NCBI GenBank assembly: GCA_035510635.1
Contig: DATKGU010000003.1
Coordinates: 662-64,661 of the forward strand
Direction of reading: 5' to 3'
Source of the DNA: Minisyncoccota bacterium
Lineage (GTDB): Bacteria > Patescibacteriota > Minisyncoccia > Phycocordibacterales > SBAW01
Length of the DNA stretch: 64,000 bases
Part shown: positions 1 through 10,699 of the stretch, in pieces
Layout: each line of letters starts with the position of its first letter
Numbering within the stretch: the first letter of the stretch is position 1
Position numbers and translations under genes: made by a program
Notes under the pieces: model-generated
Seen by the model: the letters and a program-made list of their open reading frames with translations, nothing else
Databases searched by the model: none
What the model was told of the DNA's origin: nothing

Positions 1-3
1 AAA

Positions 4-38
4 CCTGCAACCTTTTCCCGTAGGGGTTGCAGGTCAAA
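4..38 (-). terminator. Intrinsic terminator hairpin. On the minus strand: CCTGCAACC-loop-GGTTGCAGG followed by TTT at the window edge.
   Basis: 9-bp perfect stem at 6-38; minus-strand reading is followed by a T-run; lies downstream of minus-strand genes ending at 183. Confidence 0.35.
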
Positions 39-182
39 TTATGTCTCCGATCTGGATTTTCCTTACAAGTGGAGCAAAATCATATAAAACCCTTATATTG
101 CAACGTAAAACAGTTAAAAACCCATCGATTACCACCGTAAGCAACTTGTATTTACGCGCGCGTAGGGAGCGTGACGGCATGG

Positions 183-449: not shown

Positions 450-1394
450 TTAAAACCCTTCTGGCGGTTTAGTGTGTATAAAGCTATTCACACTAATTAC
501 CTTACCTTGCTCTTTTTCTAGAAAATACGTGAGCACTTCTTTGAGATCAGGCATCTTAGAGTGATCGATGGTTTTGATGAAGTTGGTAAACCCCGCTTTG
601 TTTTCGAAGAAGTTTCTCTGCGGTTGTACTACGTCATGGTCGATGAGTTCGCTCTTCAGAATTTCGTTATTAAAATATGAGACGACCGCCTTGTGTATTT
701 CACTCACGAAATCCCTCTCGTTTCTGGGTGCAGAATAATACTCGCCATGGGATAACTGATTACGAAGCCCTGCCGTGTTCTCAAAAATGTCACTAGCCAA
801 TTTGTCGCCGAGAATACTTTTATACAAATCTATAGCGTCGGGAAATGCCGTTTTATTCCTTTTGCGCCCAAGCGCTTCGATGGCTGCAAACATAAGGAGT
901 AATTTTGACGAATACCCAGTTGTGTTGGTAGCGTCGTTCCAGTAGAGATAAAAATCATTCGGTATCGTCGCCTCTGCATACAGCGTCCCAATGGCCTGCC
1001 CGTGCCTCTGAAGTAAAAGCAAACCCTGAGCATCTCGATCTCTGGTAAAGCGGAACAGTCCAGTGCTAGGGAATGAATCGGATCTAGTGATTAAAAAAGG
1101 CTCAAGGACGAATCGAACATAGCCTTGGCTCACCAGAGAAATTCTGGAAGTTATCTTCTCCAGTTTGTCGATGAAATGTGCGTAGGCCTTCTCCCAGTCC
1201 GCTGCGTTGATCTTCGCGCTTGCGAACCAAAAATCTCCGGTCGGGCCGGTCTGGATAGTGAAGTGCTCCTGTCGAAAAATAATTCCGTCCACGACAAAGC
1301 TCGGATCAGTTCCGTCTCCCATCGCGAGATGACTGATTGATCGGATTCGATGCTCGATGAAGTATTCGTTCATGATCCTAATACTCTGTTGCAC
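450..1394 (-). CDS. HEPN-domain (Rx4H) Abi-like protein, possibly Apea/Abi family. Likely true start MNEYF at 1373.
   Basis: C-terminal motif TAGLRNQLSHGEYY (R-x4-H followed by G) typical of HEPN RNase-like abortive-infection proteins. Paralogous motif context to ORF 4687-5799. Confidence 0.5.
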   Translation of the reverse strand: MQQSIRIMNEYFIEHRIRSISHLAMGDGTDPSFVVDGIIFRQEHFTIQTGPTGDFWFASAKINAADWEKAYAHFIDKLEKITSRISLVSQGYVRFVLEPFLITRSDSFPSTGLFRFTRDRDAQGLLLLQRHGQAIGTLYAEATIPNDFYLYWNDATNTTGYSSKLLLMFAAIEALGRKRNKTAFPDAIDLYKSILGDKLASDIFENTAGLRNQLSHGEYYSAPRNERDFVSEIHKAVVSYFNNEILKSELIDHDVVQPQRNFFENKAGFTNFIKTIDHSKMPDLKEVLTYFLEKEQGKVISVNSFIHTKPPEGF

Positions 1395-2193
1395 TACGCT
1401 GTTCTGCGTCCTTGAGAGCTTTCTCCACTTCTGAGTCGATTATCTTTTCGATTCGCTCAAAGGAATCGAGAGTTCGTAACTTAGCTCGTTCAGCCTTCGG
1501 CATAAAGAACTTAAAGCTCGGGCTCTCCATCTTCCACCACATGTAATAGCCTCGCCAATGTCGCTTTCGCAGACGATCGTTATAAATTTTTATTCGCGTG
1601 AGTGCCTTGATCGGCTCACTCATTTTCTTGTTGGCGTAGGCTTCAATTCCATCGGCGAAGGCTTCGAGATTTTGAGCGTAGGCGAGTCGTTGTGTCGGCG
1701 GGTCTGGGTTCGGGCCACTTTGCATCAAGGCGACAAGGGTTTCGTTCCCCCTGAGCATATCCTCAAAGTCTGGCTTTAGTTGCGAGAGAATACGATTCAT
1801 CTCTTTGATTCGGCTGTCAGAAAAGAGAGATTGATTGTGCAGGTAATAACTCCTAATTTTCAGGGTATGAATGTCGGGATCTCGATACACATCCAAAAAT
1901 GCGGGACAGTTGATACGGTCGAGCGCGAATGCGTTTGGACGCGTCTCCGCCCGTGTTTCTGCTGATAAGGCTCTGATTTTCTTCGCAAAATCTCTCAACT
2001 GAGCTCTGGTGAAATAAATGTCATTGAGTGCTGCGGTCGACCCGACTTCAATGCGTCGCATGGTTTCCCTTATCTCGGCGTTTTTCTCGAGCTTCGATTT
2101 TATGCTAAATCCAATGGCTGAGAGGATGACAGCCAAAAAAGGGCCGAGTCCAGCGCCTATGAGGGTCTGCCATTTGTTTAAAAAATCACCCAT
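1378..2193 (-). CDS. Membrane-anchored hypothetical protein (N-terminal TM helix, helical cytoplasmic domain). Overlaps the start of the HEPN gene by 17 nt, so probably an operon partner.
   Basis: Hydrophobic stretch LIGAGLGPFLAVILSAIGFSI at residues 10-30; 17-nt overlap with the downstream ORF. Confidence 0.5.
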   Translation of the reverse strand: MGDFLNKWQTLIGAGLGPFLAVILSAIGFSIKSKLEKNAEIRETMRRIEVGSTAALNDIYFTRAQLRDFAKKIRALSAETRAETRPNAFALDRINCPAFLDVYRDPDIHTLKIRSYYLHNQSLFSDSRIKEMNRILSQLKPDFEDMLRGNETLVALMQSGPNPDPPTQRLAYAQNLEAFADGIEAYANKKMSEPIKALTRIKIYNDRLRKRHWRGYYMWWKMESPSFKFFMPKAERAKLRTLDSFERIEKIIDSEVEKALKDAEQRSATEY

Positions 2194-2216: not shown

Positions 2217-3917
2217 ATGAGAGTTGACAGTAAAAAAGTACAACTCGCCCAGCCGTTTATCCCGGGTCTTTCTCCGATCCAATCAGCTGTAGATGAACTA
2301 GCTGCGGCGAACATCGATGACCGCGGCGCAATTTTCACCCGTCGGGAAGTGGTCGACTTTATACTCGATCTCGTCGGCTACACACCTGATAAATCGTTGC
2401 AGGACTTTCGACTGCTAGAGCCGTCATTCGGTCATGGCGATTTTCTTATTCCTGCGATTGAGAGGCTGATGATGTCGATCAAGCGGCAGAAATTACTGCC
2501 AACTGCGGATCTTTTGAAGGAGAGTATTCGTGGGGTGGAACTGCATGTAGCTTCATTCGGAAAAACTGTAAGCGAAGTTAGAGAGATTCTCATTAAAAAC
2601 GAACTTCGGGAGCGTGACGCGGACGAGGTACTAGACGCGTGGTTTGTCCGCGGGGACTTTCTCCTCTCGTTCTTCGGTCAGTCTTTTACTCATGTCGTTG
2701 GTAATCCACCGTATATACGACAGGAAATGGTACCGAACGCACTGATGGCCGAATATCGTCGTCGCTTTGATACCATCTACGATCGTGCTGACATTTACGT
2801 GCCGTTCATCGAGTATTCTCTCAGGCTCCTCGACGAAGGCGGTGTTCTCGGATTTATTTGTGCCGATCGTTGGATGAAAAATCGTTATGGCGGTCCGCTT
2901 CGCGACCTTGTGGCGGCAGAATTTCATCTTCGTGCATATGTCGACATGATCAACACGCACGCCTTTCATTCCGAAGTGATCGCGTATCCGGCAATAACTG
3001 TGATTGCGCGCGAGCCTTCCGGCCCGACACGTATCGCCAAACAACCGGAAATAGAAGCAGGGGCGCTTGAACAACTCTCGAAAGCCCTCAGACAAGATGC
3101 GCCGCATAGCAAAATCCTTCAGACGACCGTGCGGGAGGGCGGGCCATGGACGCTCGACGAATCTGATGCTCTCACGTTCATGCGTCGCCTTGAAGTTGAA
3201 TTCCCGACACTTGAGGAAGCTGGTTGCAAGGTAGGCATTGGTGTCGCAACTGGAGCCGATAGTGTCTTCATTGCTCCTTTCGCGGAGCTCGACGTAGAAG
3301 TTGATCGCAAATTGCCGCTCGCAATGACCAAGGACATACAGAGCGGGAAGGTCGAATGGCGCGGGTTTGGCGTGATAAATCCTTTTGGCGAAGACGGTAA
3401 GCTAGTCTCGCTTTCCGAGTATCCGAAACTGCGTGATTATCTGGAACAGCACAGCGAGACGATCAAGAGCCGTCACGTCTCCAAGAAAAACCCGAATGGC
3501 TGGTACCGGACAATCGATCGCATTTATCCTGAATTGGTGGCGAAACCGAAGCTCCTAATCCCTGACATTAAAGGTGACGCGCATATTGTGTACGAAGAGG
3601 GTAAATTCTATCCGCATCACAACCTCTACTACATAACTTCGGACAGCTGGGATCTGCAGGCACTCAGGTCCGTACTATCTTCCGGCATCGCACGTCTTTT
3701 CATCGAGGCATATTCAACGCGGATGCATGGGAACTGCCTTCGTTTCCAAGCTCAGTACTTGCGGCGCATACGCCTTCCGCAATGGTCTGATGTACCGAAA
3801 GACCTCCGTCGTCAGCTGCGTATTGCCGCTGAAAAGGACGATGTTGCTGCACGCGAAGATGCCGTCTCTCGTCTCTACTCCCTATCACCGTCTGAACGTG
3901 CTACGATTTATAGGTAA
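2217..3917 (+). CDS. Type II N6-adenine DNA methyltransferase (gamma-class, Eco57I/PaeR7I-like).
   Basis: Motif [11 protein letters not shown] (xPxxGxGxFL) and motif [10 protein letters not shown] (NPPY); 566 aa; stop TAA overlaps the ATG of the downstream ORF (TAATG). Confidence 0.85.
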
Positions 3918-4651
3918 TGACTGTAAATCTCGCGCAGTATGAAGATGGCGCTAAGCGCGCCGTAAAGCTCTTCTGGGGCAACCGAGCTACTGCTACTCAG
4001 CAGCAACTTGCTTCCGGAGCCGTCGATCATGGCACGCGCGGAGCGGTCACCGCCGGAAAGAACATGGATGGATTTGCTTCGCTCATGGCGGAGCTTGTTA
4101 AGGCTAATGGCCTCACAAATGCAACTGTTATCCACGGCGGCCGTCTCGTCACGCTCCCGGGCTTCTTCCGTCCAACCAAGCAATGGGATTTGCTCGTTCT
4201 CAATAGTGGGCATCTCGTCGCTGCGCTTGAATTCAAGTCACAAGTCGGATCATTCGGTAATAACTTCAACAACCGCACTGAGGAAGCGATCGGAACGGCG
4301 CATGATCTATGGATCGCATACCGTGAGGGGGCATTCGGCGAACAGCCAAAACCTTTCGTTGGATGGTTGATGCTCCTCGAAGATGCGCCGGGCTCTCGCT
4401 CGCCGGTGAATGACAAATCACCCCATTTTCCACTATTTTCTGACTTTAAGAACGCGTCCTATGCAGACCGCTACAACATCCTTTGTAAAAAGCTCGTGCA
4501 AGAAGGTCTCTATACAGCCGCCTCTGTTTTAATCTCGCCGCAAACCGCAAAAGACACCGGCGAATACGCAGACATGAGCGATCTCAGCAGTCTGCAAACC
4601 TTCGTGGCTACCTTTGCTGGGCACATTGCCGCTGAAGCAGCACGAAAGTAG
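3917..4651 (+). CDS. Putative Type II restriction endonuclease, cognate to the upstream methyltransferase. Size and gene order resemble XhoI/PaeR7I-family (CTCGAG) enzymes (hypothesis).
   Basis: 244-aa ORF translationally coupled (TAATG) to the methyltransferase. M-then-R order and sizes match the PaeR7I system (N6A methyltransferase ~530 aa, endonuclease ~246 aa). No direct catalytic motif could be verified by eye. Confidence 0.55.
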
Positions 4652-4686: not shown

Positions 4687-5799
4687 ATGGGTGGACATCT
4701 TTCAGTTACATATTTTCCGTTCCTCAACATGGACGGCGCGAAGGAGATCGACTTCGGGTTTCTCAAAATCTGGAACTTCTCAGCGATGAAGGATACCTAC
4801 GTCCCCGACCAAGCCACGCGCGAACACCTCGAAAAGATCTTCGCCATGCACCAGTCGTACGGGAAGCCGATTGAAGGCATCGGGGTCGTCTCGATCGGGG
4901 CGACAGACTTCAGGGCTTTTACGGAGGACGAGTATCGAAAAATCCGCGCCGCGCGGCTGATCCTTTTTCTCTCTTTTATCGACAGAAACAATACGGGGCA
5001 CGACCCAAACGCCGGCCACTCGATGGTAACGTCCGATACCTTCGATCTCTACACGCAGGGCTTCATCGTCGGCGACGATCACCTCTCAGACCGAGCGGGT
5101 GAGATTATTTCTTTCTTGAGAGGCGGCTTCGAGCTCGGCCGCACCGTGTTTGAAAGACCGGGCTTCGTGCCAGCGCATTTTATGTTCGCGCTCAGCAGCG
5201 ACCTGTTCAGTAGCCTGCGGGACATGCAAGCAAAAAGGCCTCGCGTGTTCGAAAAAGTCATTACCGCGACCGAGCTTTTTTTCGAGAGCTACTACAACGG
5301 TCCGCAGCTCAGCAAGAACGCTCGCGTGCTGTTGCAAGCGAGTGCATTCGAGGTATTGCTGGACCTGCCGGAAAGGGATCAACGCAAGCACTTCAAAGAA
5401 GCAATCGGCACGCTAACGAACCTACCGGGCGAGAAGACCTATACGCACTTTTCCGAGAGAACTGGGAGACTCAAAGTCAGGGAGAAAATTACGATCAAGC
5501 AGATCTGGGCGGACTTGTTTTACACTCTCCGGAACCACATCATCCACGGCAATACTCCAAAGAGCAGCGACTTTGTATTCAAGGGTGCACGGCACACGGA
5601 CATCACCGTCCAGTTTTTCGTTCTCTGTGTCCGGAAGCTGATCGAAAAAAAACTCCCGGGGCACCCGTGCGATCACCTCATCGAGTGGGGTTCGTGGGAG
5701 GACGCCTCACAAACACCGCCGACGCGTGTGAACGGATTTGTATATCGCGTTGAAATAATGAAAAAAATTGCGCGCGCCCTAAAAAAGAAGAGCCCTTAA
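4687..5799 (+). CDS. Second HEPN-like (Rx4H) protein, divergent paralog of ORF 450-1394.
   Basis: Motif FYTLRNHIIHGNT (R-x4-H-G) about 60 aa from the C-terminus; upstream helix SAFEVLLDL parallels AAIEALG in the other protein; SD GGGAGG upstream. Confidence 0.5.
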   Translation: MGGHLSVTYFPFLNMDGAKEIDFGFLKIWNFSAMKDTYVPDQATREHLEKIFAMHQSYGKPIEGIGVVSIGATDFRAFTEDEYRKIRAARLILFLSFIDRNNTGHDPNAGHSMVTSDTFDLYTQGFIVGDDHLSDRAGEIISFLRGGFELGRTVFERPGFVPAHFMFALSSDLFSSLRDMQAKRPRVFEKVITATELFFESYYNGPQLSKNARVLLQASAFEVLLDLPERDQRKHFKEAIGTLTNLPGEKTYTHFSERTGRLKVREKITIKQIWADLFYTLRNHIIHGNTPKSSDFVFKGARHTDITVQFFVLCVRKLIEKKLPGHPCDHLIEWGSWEDASQTPPTRVNGFVYRVEIMKKIARALKKKSP

Positions 5800-5803
5800 C
5801 GGC

Positions 5804-7009
5804 TTATTGCGATCCGTATTGCGGAATATCGCCGTACTGCGGGTTGCCCGTCTCTATCGCATCCTCGGCGGTGCGTAAGTCGGAAGGAAGGACGACGCAG
5901 CCTATGTATTCCTTGTTCGGATTGCTCTCCGCCATCGTGCTATCCACTTCGCGCAGGAACGCGCACATGTGTACGTCGTTGCCGATGGCGGAGAGGCCGG
6001 ACCAGTTGATCTGACTGAAGGTGCCGAGATCCATGTCGTACGACATGATCATGCTGGTTTTTGAGTTGCCGTACTGATCGGTCGTCTGCCCGTAGTAGCG
6101 GATGAGCACGTCGGTGAAGTCCGAGTCGACGGGAAACACATGCTGGAAGATAGCCGTGCTCAAGAGGCCGGTGTCGGTGATGATCGAATTATCATCAAGC
6201 TCTTCGCTGAGGTTCAGATCGACGGTCACGTTATCCGTGCCGGGCGGCACGGCTTGGTCGCTGTCGATCTCCACGTCCCCGAGAGTAGCCTGCGAATTGA
6301 GCTGTGCTTGTACTGCCGCTTCCGCTTTCTGCTGCGGAGATAGCGGCGCGGATGACGAAGGGGTCTCCGTGCACTGCGCGTTCGTGTCGGCACCGGTGCC
6401 GTGCGCTGTCTGCAGCGTCTCGCAGAGACTCAGAGGATCGGCTTGAGCGGGATCAGTCCAGTCCGTGCCGGCGTATGTTTTCTGATCTATCGTGTATGCG
6501 ATGAGCGGAGCGTTCTGCGAGGCGGTGGTCGTCGCAAAGTAGGTCACGGTCAACGATGACACGGGATACCCCTGTCCGAAGACGCTAGAAAACAAAGGAA
6601 CGGTATACGGGCCGGTGAGTCCCGCAACGACCGACTCGTCGACGCCGAGAAAGTTCGCCGGCACACCGAGGTTCACGCTGACCGCGCCTGCGTTATTGAT
6701 CGTCGTGCCCTCATACGTGGCAGCGCCTTTGAGCTTGCTTGCGACGACAGATTGCACGGCGCTCTCGATGGCCGATGTCTGCGCCGATGAGAGAACAGGA
6801 GTTGCGGGAACGATTGCTGCGGCTTGAGTTACTGTCGAAGGTGACGAAAGAGATGTGAGACCAAGTATGACAAAAGACGCGCCGGCGATACCACCGAAAA
6901 CATACCTCACGTGCTTACTCGACGACATTCGCACGAAGCGGGGCTTGATACTGCCGACGACGAGGGCGACAAGCGACGCAAGAAATATAACAACGAGGAG
7001 AGTATCCAT
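5804..7009 (-). CDS. Secreted or membrane-anchored Ser/Thr/Ala-rich low-complexity protein (putative surface protein).
   Basis: N-terminal hydrophobic helices (LLVVIFLASLVALVVG; GGIAGASFVILGLTSL); long S/T/A-rich region; Cys-containing C-terminal domain. Confidence 0.55.
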   Translation of the reverse strand: MDTLLVVIFLASLVALVVGSIKPRFVRMSSSKHVRYVFGGIAGASFVILGLTSLSSPSTVTQAAAIVPATPVLSSAQTSAIESAVQSVVASKLKGAATYEGTTINNAGAVSVNLGVPANFLGVDESVVAGLTGPYTVPLFSSVFGQGYPVSSLTVTYFATTTASQNAPLIAYTIDQKTYAGTDWTDPAQADPLSLCETLQTAHGTGADTNAQCTETPSSSAPLSPQQKAEAAVQAQLNSQATLGDVEIDSDQAVPPGTDNVTVDLNLSEELDDNSIITDTGLLSTAIFQHVFPVDSDFTDVLIRYYGQTTDQYGNSKTSMIMSYDMDLGTFSQINWSGLSAIGNDVHMCAFLREVDSTMAESNPNKEYIGCVVLPSDLRTAEDAIETGNPQYGDIPQYGSQ

Positions 7010-7296
7010 GATTTTCCGCGCTTAGTTGATAAGCAACTGGCAGCGGCGATTTTCTAGACACAGAAAACCCGCCACGGGTTCCGGCTTGCGCCGGACGTAC
7101 AGGTTTCCCCATACGGCGGATCACGCAACCCCATGACGGGTTTTCTATGCGTGATCCGACCAGAGGCCATGCCACCGTTGCCGATGGTTTAGGCCCTGCC
7201 CTCTCGGGCTATTCAGTTGTAAGCAAATGTTAGCATCGGCGGCGGCTCCTGACCACCCGCTTTGCTAGCGGCGGCGGTAGAGCCTAGAATGAAGGA

Positions 7297-8019
7297 ATGA
7301 CGGCGGGAGATGAGACGGAAATACAGAGAACCAGATTGATACTGGGTCTATTGAAGCAGCATCTCAATGAAGAAAGTCGTGTCGCATTTTTGTCACTCGA
7401 TACTTTGCGGAAAGTCAAAGACGCGCCCCTCGGTAGTACGACTGCCATAGAGAAAACGCTCGAATGGATTGTCGATGCGTCGAACGGAGAAATAACTTTC
7501 GACGTCGTAGAAACACCGACAATGTGGCAGCGAGAAGTTGATACTGCGCATCCTGATCCTGAGCCGCCTGTTTTCGGACCACTCGTTAAATCCGGCTTCA
7601 GGGTATGGGTATCGAATCCCAAGAAAATAGACGAATACTTCAATGCGATCCTCAAAGAGAAAAATCTATCGGTCAAAAAACCGCGCTCAAAGAAAAAGCC
7701 GTTTTTCAGCGAGATCGTGATCGGCAAGTTACATGCATGCGCTGACGGTCTAATCAGGTTTGGGGGAAATGTCGTCGACATGCGACCTCAGCTCGCGACG
7801 CTCTGTTGGCTTTTTATGGAGCATGAGGGAGCCCTCGTCACGATTGATGATATTAAAGAGCGCATTATCGAGGCGAGCAAACGAGCCGGCACCTCAAATA
7901 CGACGATAGCAAAGTATGTCAGCGAACTTCACCGACCCCTCCAAGATGTGTATGGGGGTGAGGTAATTTTCAACGAGAAGGATATTGGCTGGCGTTTTGA
8001 GCCAGAACGAACAGCCTAA
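7297..8019 (+). CDS. Transcriptional regulator with C-terminal OmpR/PhoB-type winged-helix DNA-binding domain (no receiver domain).
   Basis: C-terminus ...LATLCWLFMEHEGALVTIDDIKERI...YVSELHRPLQDVYGGEVIFNEKDIGWRFE matches the trans_reg_C pattern (L..ELL..L..N.G.VVSR..L...VWG...YV..LR.KL.....I.TVRG.GYRF). Confidence 0.5.
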   Translation: MTAGDETEIQRTRLILGLLKQHLNEESRVAFLSLDTLRKVKDAPLGSTTAIEKTLEWIVDASNGEITFDVVETPTMWQREVDTAHPDPEPPVFGPLVKSGFRVWVSNPKKIDEYFNAILKEKNLSVKKPRSKKKPFFSEIVIGKLHACADGLIRFGGNVVDMRPQLATLCWLFMEHEGALVTIDDIKERIIEASKRAGTSNTTIAKYVSELHRPLQDVYGGEVIFNEKDIGWRFEPERTA

Positions 8020-8685: not shown

Positions 8686-10437
8686 ATGAAAACAACAGGA
8701 AAATTGAATTACGGAGGATACTCGCGCAAGTCGAGCGAGGCGGAAGATAAGCAAGCGCTCTCGATCGACTCGCAGATTGATGAACTCAAGAAGCTCGCCG
8801 CAAGCAAGAAAATCGTACTACGAGATGAAGACATAATGCAGGAAGCGCATTCAGCAAAAAGTGCCTTCGCCCGCCCCGTATTCGAATTGCTTATCAAGCA
8901 CATCGAGCAACGCAAGGTGCAAGGCTTACTTGTGTGGCATCCAAACCGGCTCTCACGCAACGCCGTCGACGCGGCGCGCCTTATCCAACTGATGGACGAA
9001 GGGAAACTCGTCGAGATAGTTACGCCGAGCCAGACGTTCCATGACACGCCGCAAGACAAGTTCTTCTTCACGCTCATGACCAGCCAAGCAAAAATGGAGA
9101 ACGATGCGAAAGGCATCGATGTAAAGCGCGGACTCCGAAAAAAGAACGAGATGGGGTACCCAGCCGGCGTCGCCAAACTGGGGTACGTCAATGACTACGG
9201 CGAAAAGGGATATCGGAAGCTCGAGGCGGACCCTGAGCGCTTCGAACTCGTAAAACAGCTGCTACTCATGTTTCTTTCGGGAAAGCACTCTGCACGAGCA
9301 CTCCTGAAGCACTCAACCAATGTCATGCGACTGCATACGATCCAGCGCAAAAAAGAAGGCGGCCGACCTATCCAACTCTCTCGTATTTATACGATGCTGC
9401 AAGACCCATTCTATGCAGGCTTCTTCTGGGCCAAAGACGAAAACAGAGAAACCAAGCGATATGAGGTCAACGAGGCTGTGCCGCGAATGATTACGGAAGC
9501 CCAGTACTGGGAGATACAGACCATGCTCGGCCGGAACGGTATCCCGCGCCCGACCCTTAACAAGGATTCGTTTCCGTACGCTGGTAGGACGCGATGCGGA
9601 AACTGTAACGGTACGGTGATTGCGGAACACAAGCACCAATTGATCTGCCCAAACTGCCGGAATAAATTCGCATACAAAAACAAAGAGGTGTGTCCGCGTT
9701 GCGACACCCGAATAGATCGCATGGAAAACGCGACATACCTCCACTACATCTACTACCACTGCAATAAAGGCAAAAACCCGACCTGCGAGGAGCCGAGCAT
9801 CCAGCAGTCGGGTATAGACGAATCCATGGCGAAGCGCATCGAACAGGAGCTCGAAACGTCGAGGGCCCTTAGTGAATGGTGCATCCAGCACCTTGAGATT
9901 ATCGCGGGCGAAGAGCGCAAAAATGAGTACGAGCGCAAAGAAGGCCTAAAGCGCGAGCTGGCGCAAAAAGAAAAAGAGAGCGAAGAACTCATTCGCATGC
10001 GCATGAAAGGCCTTATCGAGGACGATGACGAGTTCCTGCGATACAAGGAAGGGCTGGAGAGCGACAAGCGCCGAATAAAGCAAGTTCTAGACGACATGGG
10101 CGGAACGGACACCGCGAGTCTCGAGGAGGCAAAGAAAGCCTTCGCCGTGATCGTCGGATTGAGCGCAGTGTTCAAAAGCGGCACATTCGAGGAAAAACAG
10201 GAGGCTTTATCGGTGCTCGGTTCGAACCTAACTTTAAAGGAGAAAAACCTCAACGTTATCAACAAGAAAGTGTTCTTATTGATTTCAAAAGGCCTACTTG
10301 AGGCGAGAGCCAAAAACCCTACGTTCGAACCTAGAAATTATGAGGCAGATAAAGACGAAACGGAGGCATTCGCCTCCGTTCGTCCAACCTTGCTCCGCGA
10401 CCAGGACTCGAACCTGGAACCAACTCCTTACACGTAA
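8686..10437 (+). CDS. Large serine recombinase/integrase (resolvase-type catalytic domain, recombinase domain and zinc-ribbon). The annotated 3' end reads through into the tRNA-Asn 3' exon.
   Basis: N-terminus GYSRKSSEAEDKQALSID...VWHPNRLSRN (catalytic Ser, resolvase fold); Cys clusters CGNCNG...CPNC and CPRC...C (zinc ribbon); coiled-coil C-terminus; 583 aa. Confidence 0.85.
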   Translation: MKTTGKLNYGGYSRKSSEAEDKQALSIDSQIDELKKLAASKKIVLRDEDIMQEAHSAKSAFARPVFELLIKHIEQRKVQGLLVWHPNRLSRNAVDAARLIQLMDEGKLVEIVTPSQTFHDTPQDKFFFTLMTSQAKMENDAKGIDVKRGLRKKNEMGYPAGVAKLGYVNDYGEKGYRKLEADPERFELVKQLLLMFLSGKHSARALLKHSTNVMRLHTIQRKKEGGRPIQLSRIYTMLQDPFYAGFFWAKDENRETKRYEVNEAVPRMITEAQYWEIQTMLGRNGIPRPTLNKDSFPYAGRTRCGNCNGTVIAEHKHQLICPNCRNKFAYKNKEVCPRCDTRIDRMENATYLHYIYYHCNKGKNPTCEEPSIQQSGIDESMAKRIEQELETSRALSEWCIQHLEIIAGEERKNEYERKEGLKRELAQKEKESEELIRMRMKGLIEDDDEFLRYKEGLESDKRRIKQVLDDMGGTDTASLEEAKKAFAVIVGLSAVFKSGTFEEKQEALSVLGSNLTLKEKNLNVINKKVFLLISKGLLEARAKNPTFEPRNYEADKDETEAFASVRPTLLRDQDSNLEPTPYT

Positions 10438-10699
10438 TCCCACATTGCTGGGGGCGTGGACTATATCATCATCCCAGTTACTAAACTGTCGGATGCGAGG
10501 CGCTTCGTGCCGCAAAACAACTTTGCGGAACTACTCCCTTGCGGGATAGTCTCTACACCTTTTCCAAAACTTTTGGAACTTGGCTCGGGATTGCCCTTAT
10601 TGCTAAGGGTTTCCCCGAATTCACCTCGTTTTGCAATCCAGATTACGCTGGAAAGCTGCCTTTTGACAGGGAGCTGCTCTACCATTGAGCTATCGCGGA
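10393..10699 (-). tRNA. tRNA-Asn(GUU) interrupted by a group I intron in the anticodon loop (exons 10666-10699 and 10393-10430; mature length 72 nt, CCA not encoded).
   Basis: 5' exon UCCGCGA-UA-GCUC-AAUGGUA-GAGC-A-GCUCC-CUGU. 3' exon UAA-GGAGU-UGGUU-CCAGG-UUCGAGU-CCUGG-UCGCGGA-G. Acceptor stems complementary, U1-A72, G73, loop CUGUUAA identical to E. coli tRNA-Asn. An alternative splice reading would give Thr(UGU). Confidence 0.65.
10431..10665 (-). ncRNA. Group I self-splicing intron, IC3-like (Azoarcus/tRNA-type), 235 nt, no ORF.
   Basis: P1: exon CUGU^C pairs with IGS GGCAG (U.G at the splice site). R-like GGUGUAGAGACUA and S-like GAUAUAGUCC elements form P7 (GACUA/UAGUC). Strong similarity to the Azoarcus intron core (AAUUCGGGGAAACC...CCGAGCCAAGUUCC...AAGGUGUAGAGACUA). 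Terminal G before the 3' exon. Confidence 0.7.

Follow-up and report, generated by a model that had tools for sequence, protein, structure and literature searches.

The window analysed here, a 64,000-nucleotide (nt) stretch of contig DATKGU010000003.1 from a Minisyncoccota bacterium, contains at 4687–5799 an open reading frame (ORF 4687) that very probably encodes a HEPN-type ribonuclease (RNase) of an uncharacterised, mobile family. The gene is real and conserved, is patchily distributed across Patescibacteria and other phyla, and occurs among mobile-element and defence genes. The reading that we favour, and hold to be rather probable, is that its product is a stand-alone, two-domain HEPN RNase of an uncharacterised family nearest to the Apea-like HEPN proteins and that it is triggered by phage, although the RNase and defence roles are ones that we infer. 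The gene follows a XhoI-type restriction-modification (R-M) pair and shares an island with a second HEPN gene at 450–1394 (ORF 450).

Domain architecture and predicted active site

The translated product of ORF 4687 is identical over its full length (100% identity) to the NCBI entry 'hypothetical protein VMR46_00540' from a Candidatus Paceibacterota metagenome-assembled genome, and the same search returned 63 homolog clusters. In the AlphaFold model (mean predicted local distance difference test score, pLDDT, 93.1; predicted template modelling score, pTM, 0.92), the protein is divided into a family-specific N-terminal domain and a C-terminal, Apea-like HEPN domain. The N-terminal domain is of mixed β/α composition, and its conserved residues in the alignments are P11, W29, N30, G66, F94, N108, N118, G138 (invariant), G147 and P158. 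It gave zero matches in the Pfam, NCBIfam, PADLOC and PHROG libraries. By analogy with ApeA, we propose that this domain may have a sensor or regulatory function.

The HEPN core is a helical bundle composed of helices H0 (residues 171–183), H1 (185–201), H2 (210–224), H3 (270–286) and H4 (303–322), with one helix (232–244) and a β-hairpin (251–269) inserted between H2 and H3. The C-terminal extension past H4 is less well conserved in the alignments. In the published definition of the HEPN domain, the catalytic motif is located at the end of helix 3 with a polar residue following the arginine, an acidic residue lies in helix 2, and an insert separates helices 2 and 3 (Anantharaman et al. 2013, PMC3710099). 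The motif and the acidic residue of ORF 4687 are placed in this same layout (PMC3710099). R282 and N283 close H3, H287 opens the following loop, and the acidic helix-2 residue is E222, within H2. Of the helix-2 Ex3[KR] pattern, the basic residue is absent in ORF 4687 (E222-V-L-L-D226) and present in ORF 450 (E173-A-L-G-R177).

The initial annotation had described both ORFs as HEPN-like, on the basis of short motifs at the same relative position. All of the strings that it quoted were found in the two ORFs: ORF 4687 carries LFYTLRNHIIHGNT (R282..H287, G288) and QASAFEVLLDL (E222), and ORF 450 carries GLRNQLSHG (R211..H216, G217) and FAAIEALG (E173). The equivalence of position holds structurally, since in both AlphaFold models the third core helix ends with the motif and the second core helix carries the conserved Glu. 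The HEPN call was right for both proteins.

Taken by itself, the bare Rx4H motif is common. When all six reading frames of the window are translated and every ORF of 100 amino acids (aa) or more is kept, the resulting 33,604 aa contain 93 matches, or about one expected per 370 aa. In the same set, the fuller pattern R[NHD]xxxHG has exactly two matches, which are ORF 4687 and ORF 450. In 103 diverse relatives of ORF 4687, down to 20% identity, G138, R282 and H287 are the only invariant columns, and E222, R213, N204, W274, A275 and G288 are conserved in at least 90%. Among a set of 49 homologs, E222 is invariant and N283 is at least 90% conserved, and R211, H216 and G217 are retained by all of the 55 ORF 450 relatives aligned. 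Given the uniqueness of the fuller pattern and, as the stronger argument, the conservation of these residues, the motif observation is confirmed.

Assignment to a HEPN family

HEPN_Apea (PF18739), which corresponds to the 'ApeA/BMEI1217' family of Anantharaman et al. 2013 (PMC3710099), is the only Pfam family matched by the relatives of ORF 4687. On ORF 4687 itself, the model aligns with residues 191–292, spanning H1 to the Rx4H motif, with a sub-threshold score of 19.1 bits (E 0.0019). Of the 49 relatives in one set, it matches 14 at E<0.1, with a best E-value of 7.8e-7; of the 103 in the other, 3 reach roughly the gathering score. A precomputed PF18739 call is present on three relatives. As the sole Pfam family matched, HEPN_Apea is taken as the nearest family, short of an established membership of the ORF 4687 protein. 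Our analysis shows that the sub-threshold signal is real at the level of the fold.

The PADLOC ApeA model gave no match to ORF 4687 at E<=1. A third homolog search with a broad profile (A4) stayed within the family and recovered neither ORF 450 relatives nor any canonical ApeA. Because of the sub-threshold Pfam score, the PADLOC miss and a size of 370 aa in two domains as compared to about 580 aa for ApeA, we call the protein Apea-like and do not file it as ApeA.

Relationship between the two HEPN proteins

The initial annotation had interpreted ORF 4687 and ORF 450 as distant paralogs of one HEPN/abortive-infection (Abi) family. Compared directly by BLASTP, the two proteins showed no significant similarity (E 0.19). 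In profile–profile comparisons with hhalign, a signal in the HEPN region emerged only with trimmed or broader profiles. The C-terminal sub-alignments of the two families matched with a probability of 82.7%. When a broad ORF 4687 profile (146 sequences, effective number of sequences, Neff, 6.1) was compared over its full length with an ORF 450 profile built from 58 relatives, the probability was 91.7% (E 7.7e-7, score 55.0), against control scores of 15.8 for reversed profiles and at most 22.2 for 20 column shuffles. The HEPN halves alone gave 94.8% (E 5.4e-8, score 53.6; shuffles at most 15.8). The full-length alignment pairs NARxLLQxSAFExLL with SSKLLLMFSAIEAL and TLRNHIIHG with GLRHRLVHGE, so that the E222 helix of ORF 4687 is matched to the SSKLLLMFSAIEAL helix of the ORF 450 family. 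The HEPN domains thus lie well above the controls, and the motifs brought into register are exactly those that the initial annotation had named. For comparison, HHpred probabilities of 75–98% are the range that was used to unite HEPN families (PMC3710099).

On the other hand, the N-terminal domains are dissimilar. Compared with each other, they scored 14.1, inside the null range of 8.9–14.7, and the order of their secondary-structure elements differs between the two AlphaFold models. A 27% N-terminal match in the first, default full-length hhalign alignments was discarded as noise after the domain-split test. Only the ORF 4687 family touches HEPN_Apea; the ORF 450 family matched no Pfam HEPN model significantly and gave no HEPN_Apea signal, and searches of PADLOC, NCBIfam and PHROGs were equally negative for ORF 450 itself. 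Nor do the two families co-occur, as a hidden Markov model (HMM) of the ORF 450 family found 0 members in 26 other loci of the ORF 4687 family, and the reciprocal HMM found 0 members in four loci of the ORF 450 family (L010–L013). Homology therefore stands for the HEPN domains, while a single shared family does not. With only the HEPN domain in common, distinct N-terminal domains and no co-occurrence, the relationship is one at the level of the HEPN superfamily, and the two ORFs represent two separate HEPN families, with no evidence for one family or for a recent duplication.

In both families, the helix-2 xSAxEaL and LR[NH]xxxHG motifs are alignable, and both occur as single-gene cargo beside recombinases or defence genes, in the case of the ORF 450 family for example a Gabija-like AAA_15/UvrD pair. 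Unlike ORF 4687, the ORF 450 family has a shorter insert between helices 2 and 3 and an additional invariant set of WND and PQR motifs. The start of ORF 450 in the NCBI annotation is Met8 (307 aa, ATG at 1373) and not the GTG at 1394. One relative of ORF 450 (P0074) adjoins an AAA_15/AAA_21 ATPase and a UvrD-like helicase, which are Gabija-like (L010 6567–9655, L011 5076–8164), and is preceded by an overlapping 59-aa ORF, a further defence-island context for the second HEPN family. The 271-aa protein encoded directly upstream of ORF 450 has no match in Pfam, NCBIfam, PADLOC or PHROGs, and was rejected as a conserved partner of ORF 450, since phmmer found no homolog of it beside the ORF 450 relatives (L010–L013).

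Distribution and neighbourhoods of the ORF 4687 family

The family of ORF 4687 comprises 885 representatives (clusters at 50% identity) at E<=1e-3, and 462 at E<=1e-10. A pattern scan of about 185,000 GTDB species representatives matched 22 species in at least 7 lineages. Most of these are Patescibacteria (Paceibacterota, Gottesmanbacteria, Roizmanbacteria, Saccharibacteria and WWE3), and the others belong to the Gemmatimonadales, Planctomycetales, Nitrospirota, Deltaproteobacteria, Syntrophales and Dehalococcoidia.

The neighbourhoods are diverse. In one locus (L001), a C5-methylase, Vsr and a probable restriction endonuclease (REase) are encoded directly upstream of the homolog, and in another (L002) a methylase-S fusion (a type I/IIG-like methylase), Mrr and PIN genes lie upstream. 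The closest homolog, 78% identical (L003), has a Shedu-type SduA_C gene and is without an R-M neighbour. Elsewhere, DUF7380/EMARD_N lies upstream with AbiEii and a serine recombinase nearby (L004), a serine recombinase gene overlaps the stop of the homolog (L005), small ORFs without assignment are found (L006), or the neighbours are the housekeeping genes for ArgRS and gyrase A (L009). Genes in close linkage with, or near, the homolog in 19 further loci encode, among others, a KAP NTPase, a ResIII/SNF2 helicase and a Fic protein, and the neighbour families counted there are Resolvase (6 ORFs, the commonest), HTH_3 (3), N6_N4 methylases (2) and AAA_21 ATPases (2). Serine recombinases are the commonest neighbours of the family. 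R-M genes, of unrelated types, are near the family in about 5 of 28 loci, namely the window, L001, L002 and about two more. No conserved partner gene was found, the neighbours being different in every locus read, and this variation indicates that the ORF 4687 gene is single-gene cargo of defence islands and serine-recombinase elements.

Two further observations concern individual members. In L020, a 230-aa ORF at 5546–6238 (+), 2 nt past the family gene, gives a weak match to the family HMM (E 7e-4); it could represent a fragment or a second copy that has degenerated. A distant relative of 406 aa (P0276) has a precomputed Pfam match to PF11867, which we take to be an HsdR C-terminal-like domain; the protein may contain a fragment of a type I restriction subunit, through either a fusion or a merged gene call.

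The island and its restriction-modification pair

The features of the gene and of its surroundings are listed in Table 1. Both HEPN genes lie on what we infer to be an integrative island; it measures about 11 kb and adjoins a tRNA gene that contains an intron. An independent short-read Logan assembly provides a contig of 10,969 bp (L036) whose left end lies about 550 bp before the window begins and whose right end corresponds to window position 10419. Its gene content is exactly the island set, consisting of the two HEPN genes and those of the 271-aa protein, methylase, REase, 401-aa protein, 240-aa protein and recombinase, and its right end falls inside the tRNA 3′ exon. The coincidence of this contig with the island genes, together with its end in the tRNA, suggests a discrete and possibly strain-variable integrative element. 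No second copy of the tRNA 3′ end was found in the window, and the island ends in L036 show no convincing direct or inverted (att-like) repeats.

Table 1. Features of ORF 4687 and of the surrounding island (window coordinates)
Feature	Coordinates	Strand	Description
ORF 4687 gene	4687..5799	+	370 aa, ATG start; two-domain protein with family-specific N-terminal alpha/beta domain and C-terminal Apea-like HEPN domain
N-terminal domain	4687..5196	+	about aa 1-170; mixed beta/alpha (AlphaFold)
HEPN core	5197..5652	+	aa 171-322; helical bundle (AlphaFold)
Helix-2 motif NARVLLQASAFEVLL	5314..5358	+	conserved acidic E222, codon 5350-5352
Predicted catalytic motif R282-N-H-I-I-H287-G288	5530..5550	+	Rx4H, polar residue following R
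C-terminal extension past H4	5653..5799	+	beta-hairpin 330-355, terminal helix 357-368 (AlphaFold)
ORF 450, second HEPN protein of a different family	450..1394	-	314 aa as ORF; Rx4H R211-N-Q-L-S-H216-G217 at 744-764
271-aa protein	1378..2193	-	hydrophobic segment at the N-terminus; same strand as ORF 450 and directly upstream, ending 4 nt before the likely ATG (1373) of ORF 450
Type II N6-adenine DNA methyltransferase, Eco57I/TaqI_C type	2217..3917	+	Pfam Eco57I E 1e-20; PADLOC MTase_II E 5.7e-232; first gene of the same-strand cluster
XhoI-family type II REase	3917..4651	+	Pfam XhoI E 2.4e-87; PADLOC REase_II E 8e-103
401-aa protein	5804-7009	-	membrane-anchored, Ser/Thr/Ala-rich; convergent with ORF 4687
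240-aa protein	7297-8019	+	weak winged-helix signal
Large serine recombinase (phage-type integrase)	8686..10437	+	Pfam Resolvase and Recombinase; PHROG 95 integrase E 2e-58; right edge of the island
tRNA gene split by group I intron	10393..10699	-	Rfam RF00028 at 10438-10679, 71.7 bits vs gathering 50; right border of the island

The tRNA was not called by ARAGORN in the genomic sequence, but was called after in silico removal of the intron. Its exon 1 starts at 10699 (TCCGCGATAGCTCAATGGTAGAGCAGCTCC...) and its exon 2 ends near 10393 (...GGTTCGAGTCCTGGTCGCGGAG). Its anticodon would read GUU (Asn) or UGU (Thr) according to where exactly the intron is spliced out. The 3′ exon is overlapped by the final codons of the serine recombinase ORF.

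Within the island, the methylase stop and the REase start overlap by one base, and ORF 4687 begins 35 nt beyond the REase stop, after a gap that contains GGAGG. Consensus scans, which were of the sigma-70 type, revealed neither a terminator-like nor a promoter-like site in this gap. As judged from so short a gap without such sites, ORF 4687 is probably co-transcribed with the XhoI-type R-M pair.

Two non-coding observations were made in passing. A full-length LOOT RNA (Rfam RF03000; 84.5 bits vs gathering 46.4) is located at 7080–7195 (-), directly upstream of the gene for the 401-aa protein and within the island. Copies of an ACCTGCA / TGCAGGT-like motif, recognised by eye, cluster in the non-coding left end (L036 130–590, mostly left of the window; window 1–40), and could be binding sites of the recombinase or of a regulator.

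Proposed function and alternative explanations

According to the mechanism that we propose, the ORF 4687 protein would dimerise via its HEPN core and thereby form a composite, metal-independent RNase site, which the family-specific N-terminal domain of about 170 aa would keep inactive. Upon phage infection, a signal sensed by the N-terminal domain would switch the enzyme on, and the active enzyme would then cut tRNA or other RNA so as to halt phage growth, leaving 2′,3′-cyclic phosphate ends. The outcome might be growth arrest or the direct destruction of phage RNA, and within the island the protein would back up the XhoI-type restriction system at the level of RNA. This proposal is modelled on HEPN biochemistry (PMC3710099), on ApeA (10.64898/2026.01.26.701840, 10.64898/2026.03.20.713152) and on the logic of HEPN-type Abi proteins.

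The initial annotation had also seen a layered arrangement of restriction plus abortive infection. As a description of this island, that view is reasonable, given the co-location of the genes and their probable shared transcript, but the arrangement is not conserved, as the closest homolog and most of the others are without R-M neighbours. The island therefore stacks one DNA-level and two putative RNA-level defences by co-location and not as an obligate functional unit, ORF 450 being a second, independently acquired HEPN protein. A more far-reaching version, to which we give a modest chance at best, would make ORF 4687 a compact, unclassified relative of ApeA whose N-terminal domain senses a new infection signal. 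Given the concentration of the family in Patescibacteria, it would then be among the first candidates for an abortive-infection RNase in these episymbionts with reduced genomes, which belong to the Candidate Phyla Radiation (CPR), and might be wired to the R-M pair as a PrrC-style back-up through the shared transcript.

Several results weigh against a phage-triggered, Apea-like HEPN RNase. The score of ORF 4687 with HEPN_Apea is below the Pfam gathering threshold of 24.4 bits, and the protein has no match in PADLOC, NCBIfam or PHROGs. Among 49 relatives, PADLOC 'Cas13-ApeA' matches one (E 0.016). A Foldseek search of the model against the full PDB returned nothing below E 0.5, and profile searches of the PDB sequences (profiles A1 and A4) gave no match at E<=10; from these null results, the whole protein has no close solved relative. 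Some homologs are surrounded by housekeeping genes, as in L009, where no defence gene lies within about 3.5 kb. Finally, sigma-70-type consensus scans for promoters and terminators say little for a CPR bacterium.

ORF 4687 follows the REase gene on the same strand after 35 nt in which no terminator-like site was found. This position would also suit a guard resembling PrrC, in which the XhoI-type R-M enzymes bind and silence the HEPN protein and an anticodon nuclease is freed only when a phage inhibits restriction. Such a logic has been proposed for HEPN genes in R-M operons (PMC3710099), and the homologs in L001 and L002 also directly follow genes of R-M regions. The HsdR C-terminal-like domain on the distant relative P0276 would likewise fit such a guard. 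However, R-M linkage is confined to the minority of loci counted above, and is missing even from the 78%-identical homolog. Where it exists, the R-M types are unrelated (XhoI type II in the window, C5-methylase/Vsr in L001, type I/IIG-like methylase and Mrr in L002); this diversity speaks against a specific protein–protein interface. Since ORF 4687 also has no ABC-ATPase Pfam match and no GxxxxGK[ST] (Walker A) motif, we regard such a guard as unlikely. Many HEPN proteins are toxins of toxin-antitoxin (TA) modules, and HepT is among the best structural matches of ORF 4687; as the gene travels with serine-recombinase elements, it might therefore be the toxin of an addiction module that stabilises the integrative island rather than a phage defence. 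No conserved adjacent small gene or MNT-type antitoxin was present in the contexts read, however, and a large N-terminal domain of its own is a hallmark of self-regulated, Abi-type HEPN proteins and not of two-gene TA toxins. This makes an addiction toxin quite unlikely.

Some homologs stand between housekeeping genes, as next to those for ArgRS and gyrase A, and would be compatible with an active or inactive HEPN protein in housekeeping RNA processing or nucleotide binding. We judge this to be very unlikely, because the family is scattered over distant phyla (22 of about 185,000 species representatives in the pattern scan) and frequently has recombinase and defence-gene neighbours, and because the invariance of the predicted catalytic R and H would argue for an active nuclease. 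Finally, the two HEPN proteins might be thought to form a single system, such as a heterodimer of paralogs on either side of the R-M pair, since the island of about 11 kb carries both genes, the HEPN domains of the two are homologous and HEPN domains act as dimers. This idea is hardly credible: the absence of co-occurrence (26 loci of one family, four of the other) already refutes it for the most part, the genes are on opposite strands with three genes between them, and the N-terminal domains are unrelated.

Comparison with known systems

ApeA is a defence system that was reportedly described by Gao in 2020. It is a single-protein HEPN anticodon nuclease in which a pocket formed by the N-terminal and HEPN domains brings about activation (10.64898/2026.01.26.701840), and with about 580 aa and three domains (N, Mid and a split HEPN_ApeA) it assembles into ring-shaped oligomers built from HEPN dimers (10.64898/2026.01.26.701840). 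Members of the Apea family are on record within R-M operons (PMC3710099). Like ApeA, ORF 4687 has a C-terminal HEPN_Apea-type domain, an Rx4H motif with a polar residue after R and a HEPN core with extra insertions, and it too consists of one protein that brings its own N-terminal domain and lacks a conserved partner. It differs in being shorter, with two domains as compared to the three of ApeA, which is known here from its published domain map, and in a mixed alpha/beta N-terminal domain that matches no library. By this analogy, cleavage of the tRNA anticodon loop under control of a ligand pocket, as in ApeA, is the best available working model for ORF 4687.

The HepT, DUF86 and HEPN-T toxins (PDB 7ae2, 5yep, 1ylm and 2hsb) are stand-alone domains, each about 130 aa long, whose genes are paired with that of an MNT antitoxin. 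In contrast, ORF 4687 bears an N-terminal domain of about 170 aa, its sequence identity to them is only 7–12%, and no MNT (NTP_transf-type) neighbour was found in the window or in the homolog loci. With PrrC and RloC, it shares the presence of a HEPN RNase gene in or near an R-M operon and the logic of restriction with an RNA-level back-up (PMC3710099). Unlike these, it lacks an N-terminal ABC-ATPase domain, it neighbours a type II XhoI-like pair instead of a type I R-M system, and the R-M linkage is not conserved among its homologs. As compared to AbiA-CTD, AbiD/F, AbiJ, AbiU2 and AbiV, it has no Abi Pfam match, and it contains neither the reverse transcriptase nor the AbiJ-type N-terminal domain of HEPN-type Abi proteins.

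ORF 4687 introduces no new principle, since HEPN genes beside R-M systems have been described since 2013 (PMC3710099) and single-protein HEPN defence, in the form of ApeA, is mechanistically understood. What is new is an uncharacterised, CPR-enriched family of short, Apea-like proteins whose N-terminal domain is without a match in the libraries. A fold and a predicted catalytic site (R282/H287, E222) can now be given for a family annotated merely as 'hypothetical protein', which counts 885 or more clusters at 50% identity, of which many come from Patescibacteria, a group whose antiviral repertoire is poorly known. The locus also adds to the natural cases in which a predicted HEPN RNase gene directly follows a type II R-M pair, here on a mobile island. 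In practical terms, this short, ApeA-like variant could be set beside ApeA itself for comparing how N-terminal sensor domains gate HEPN nucleases.

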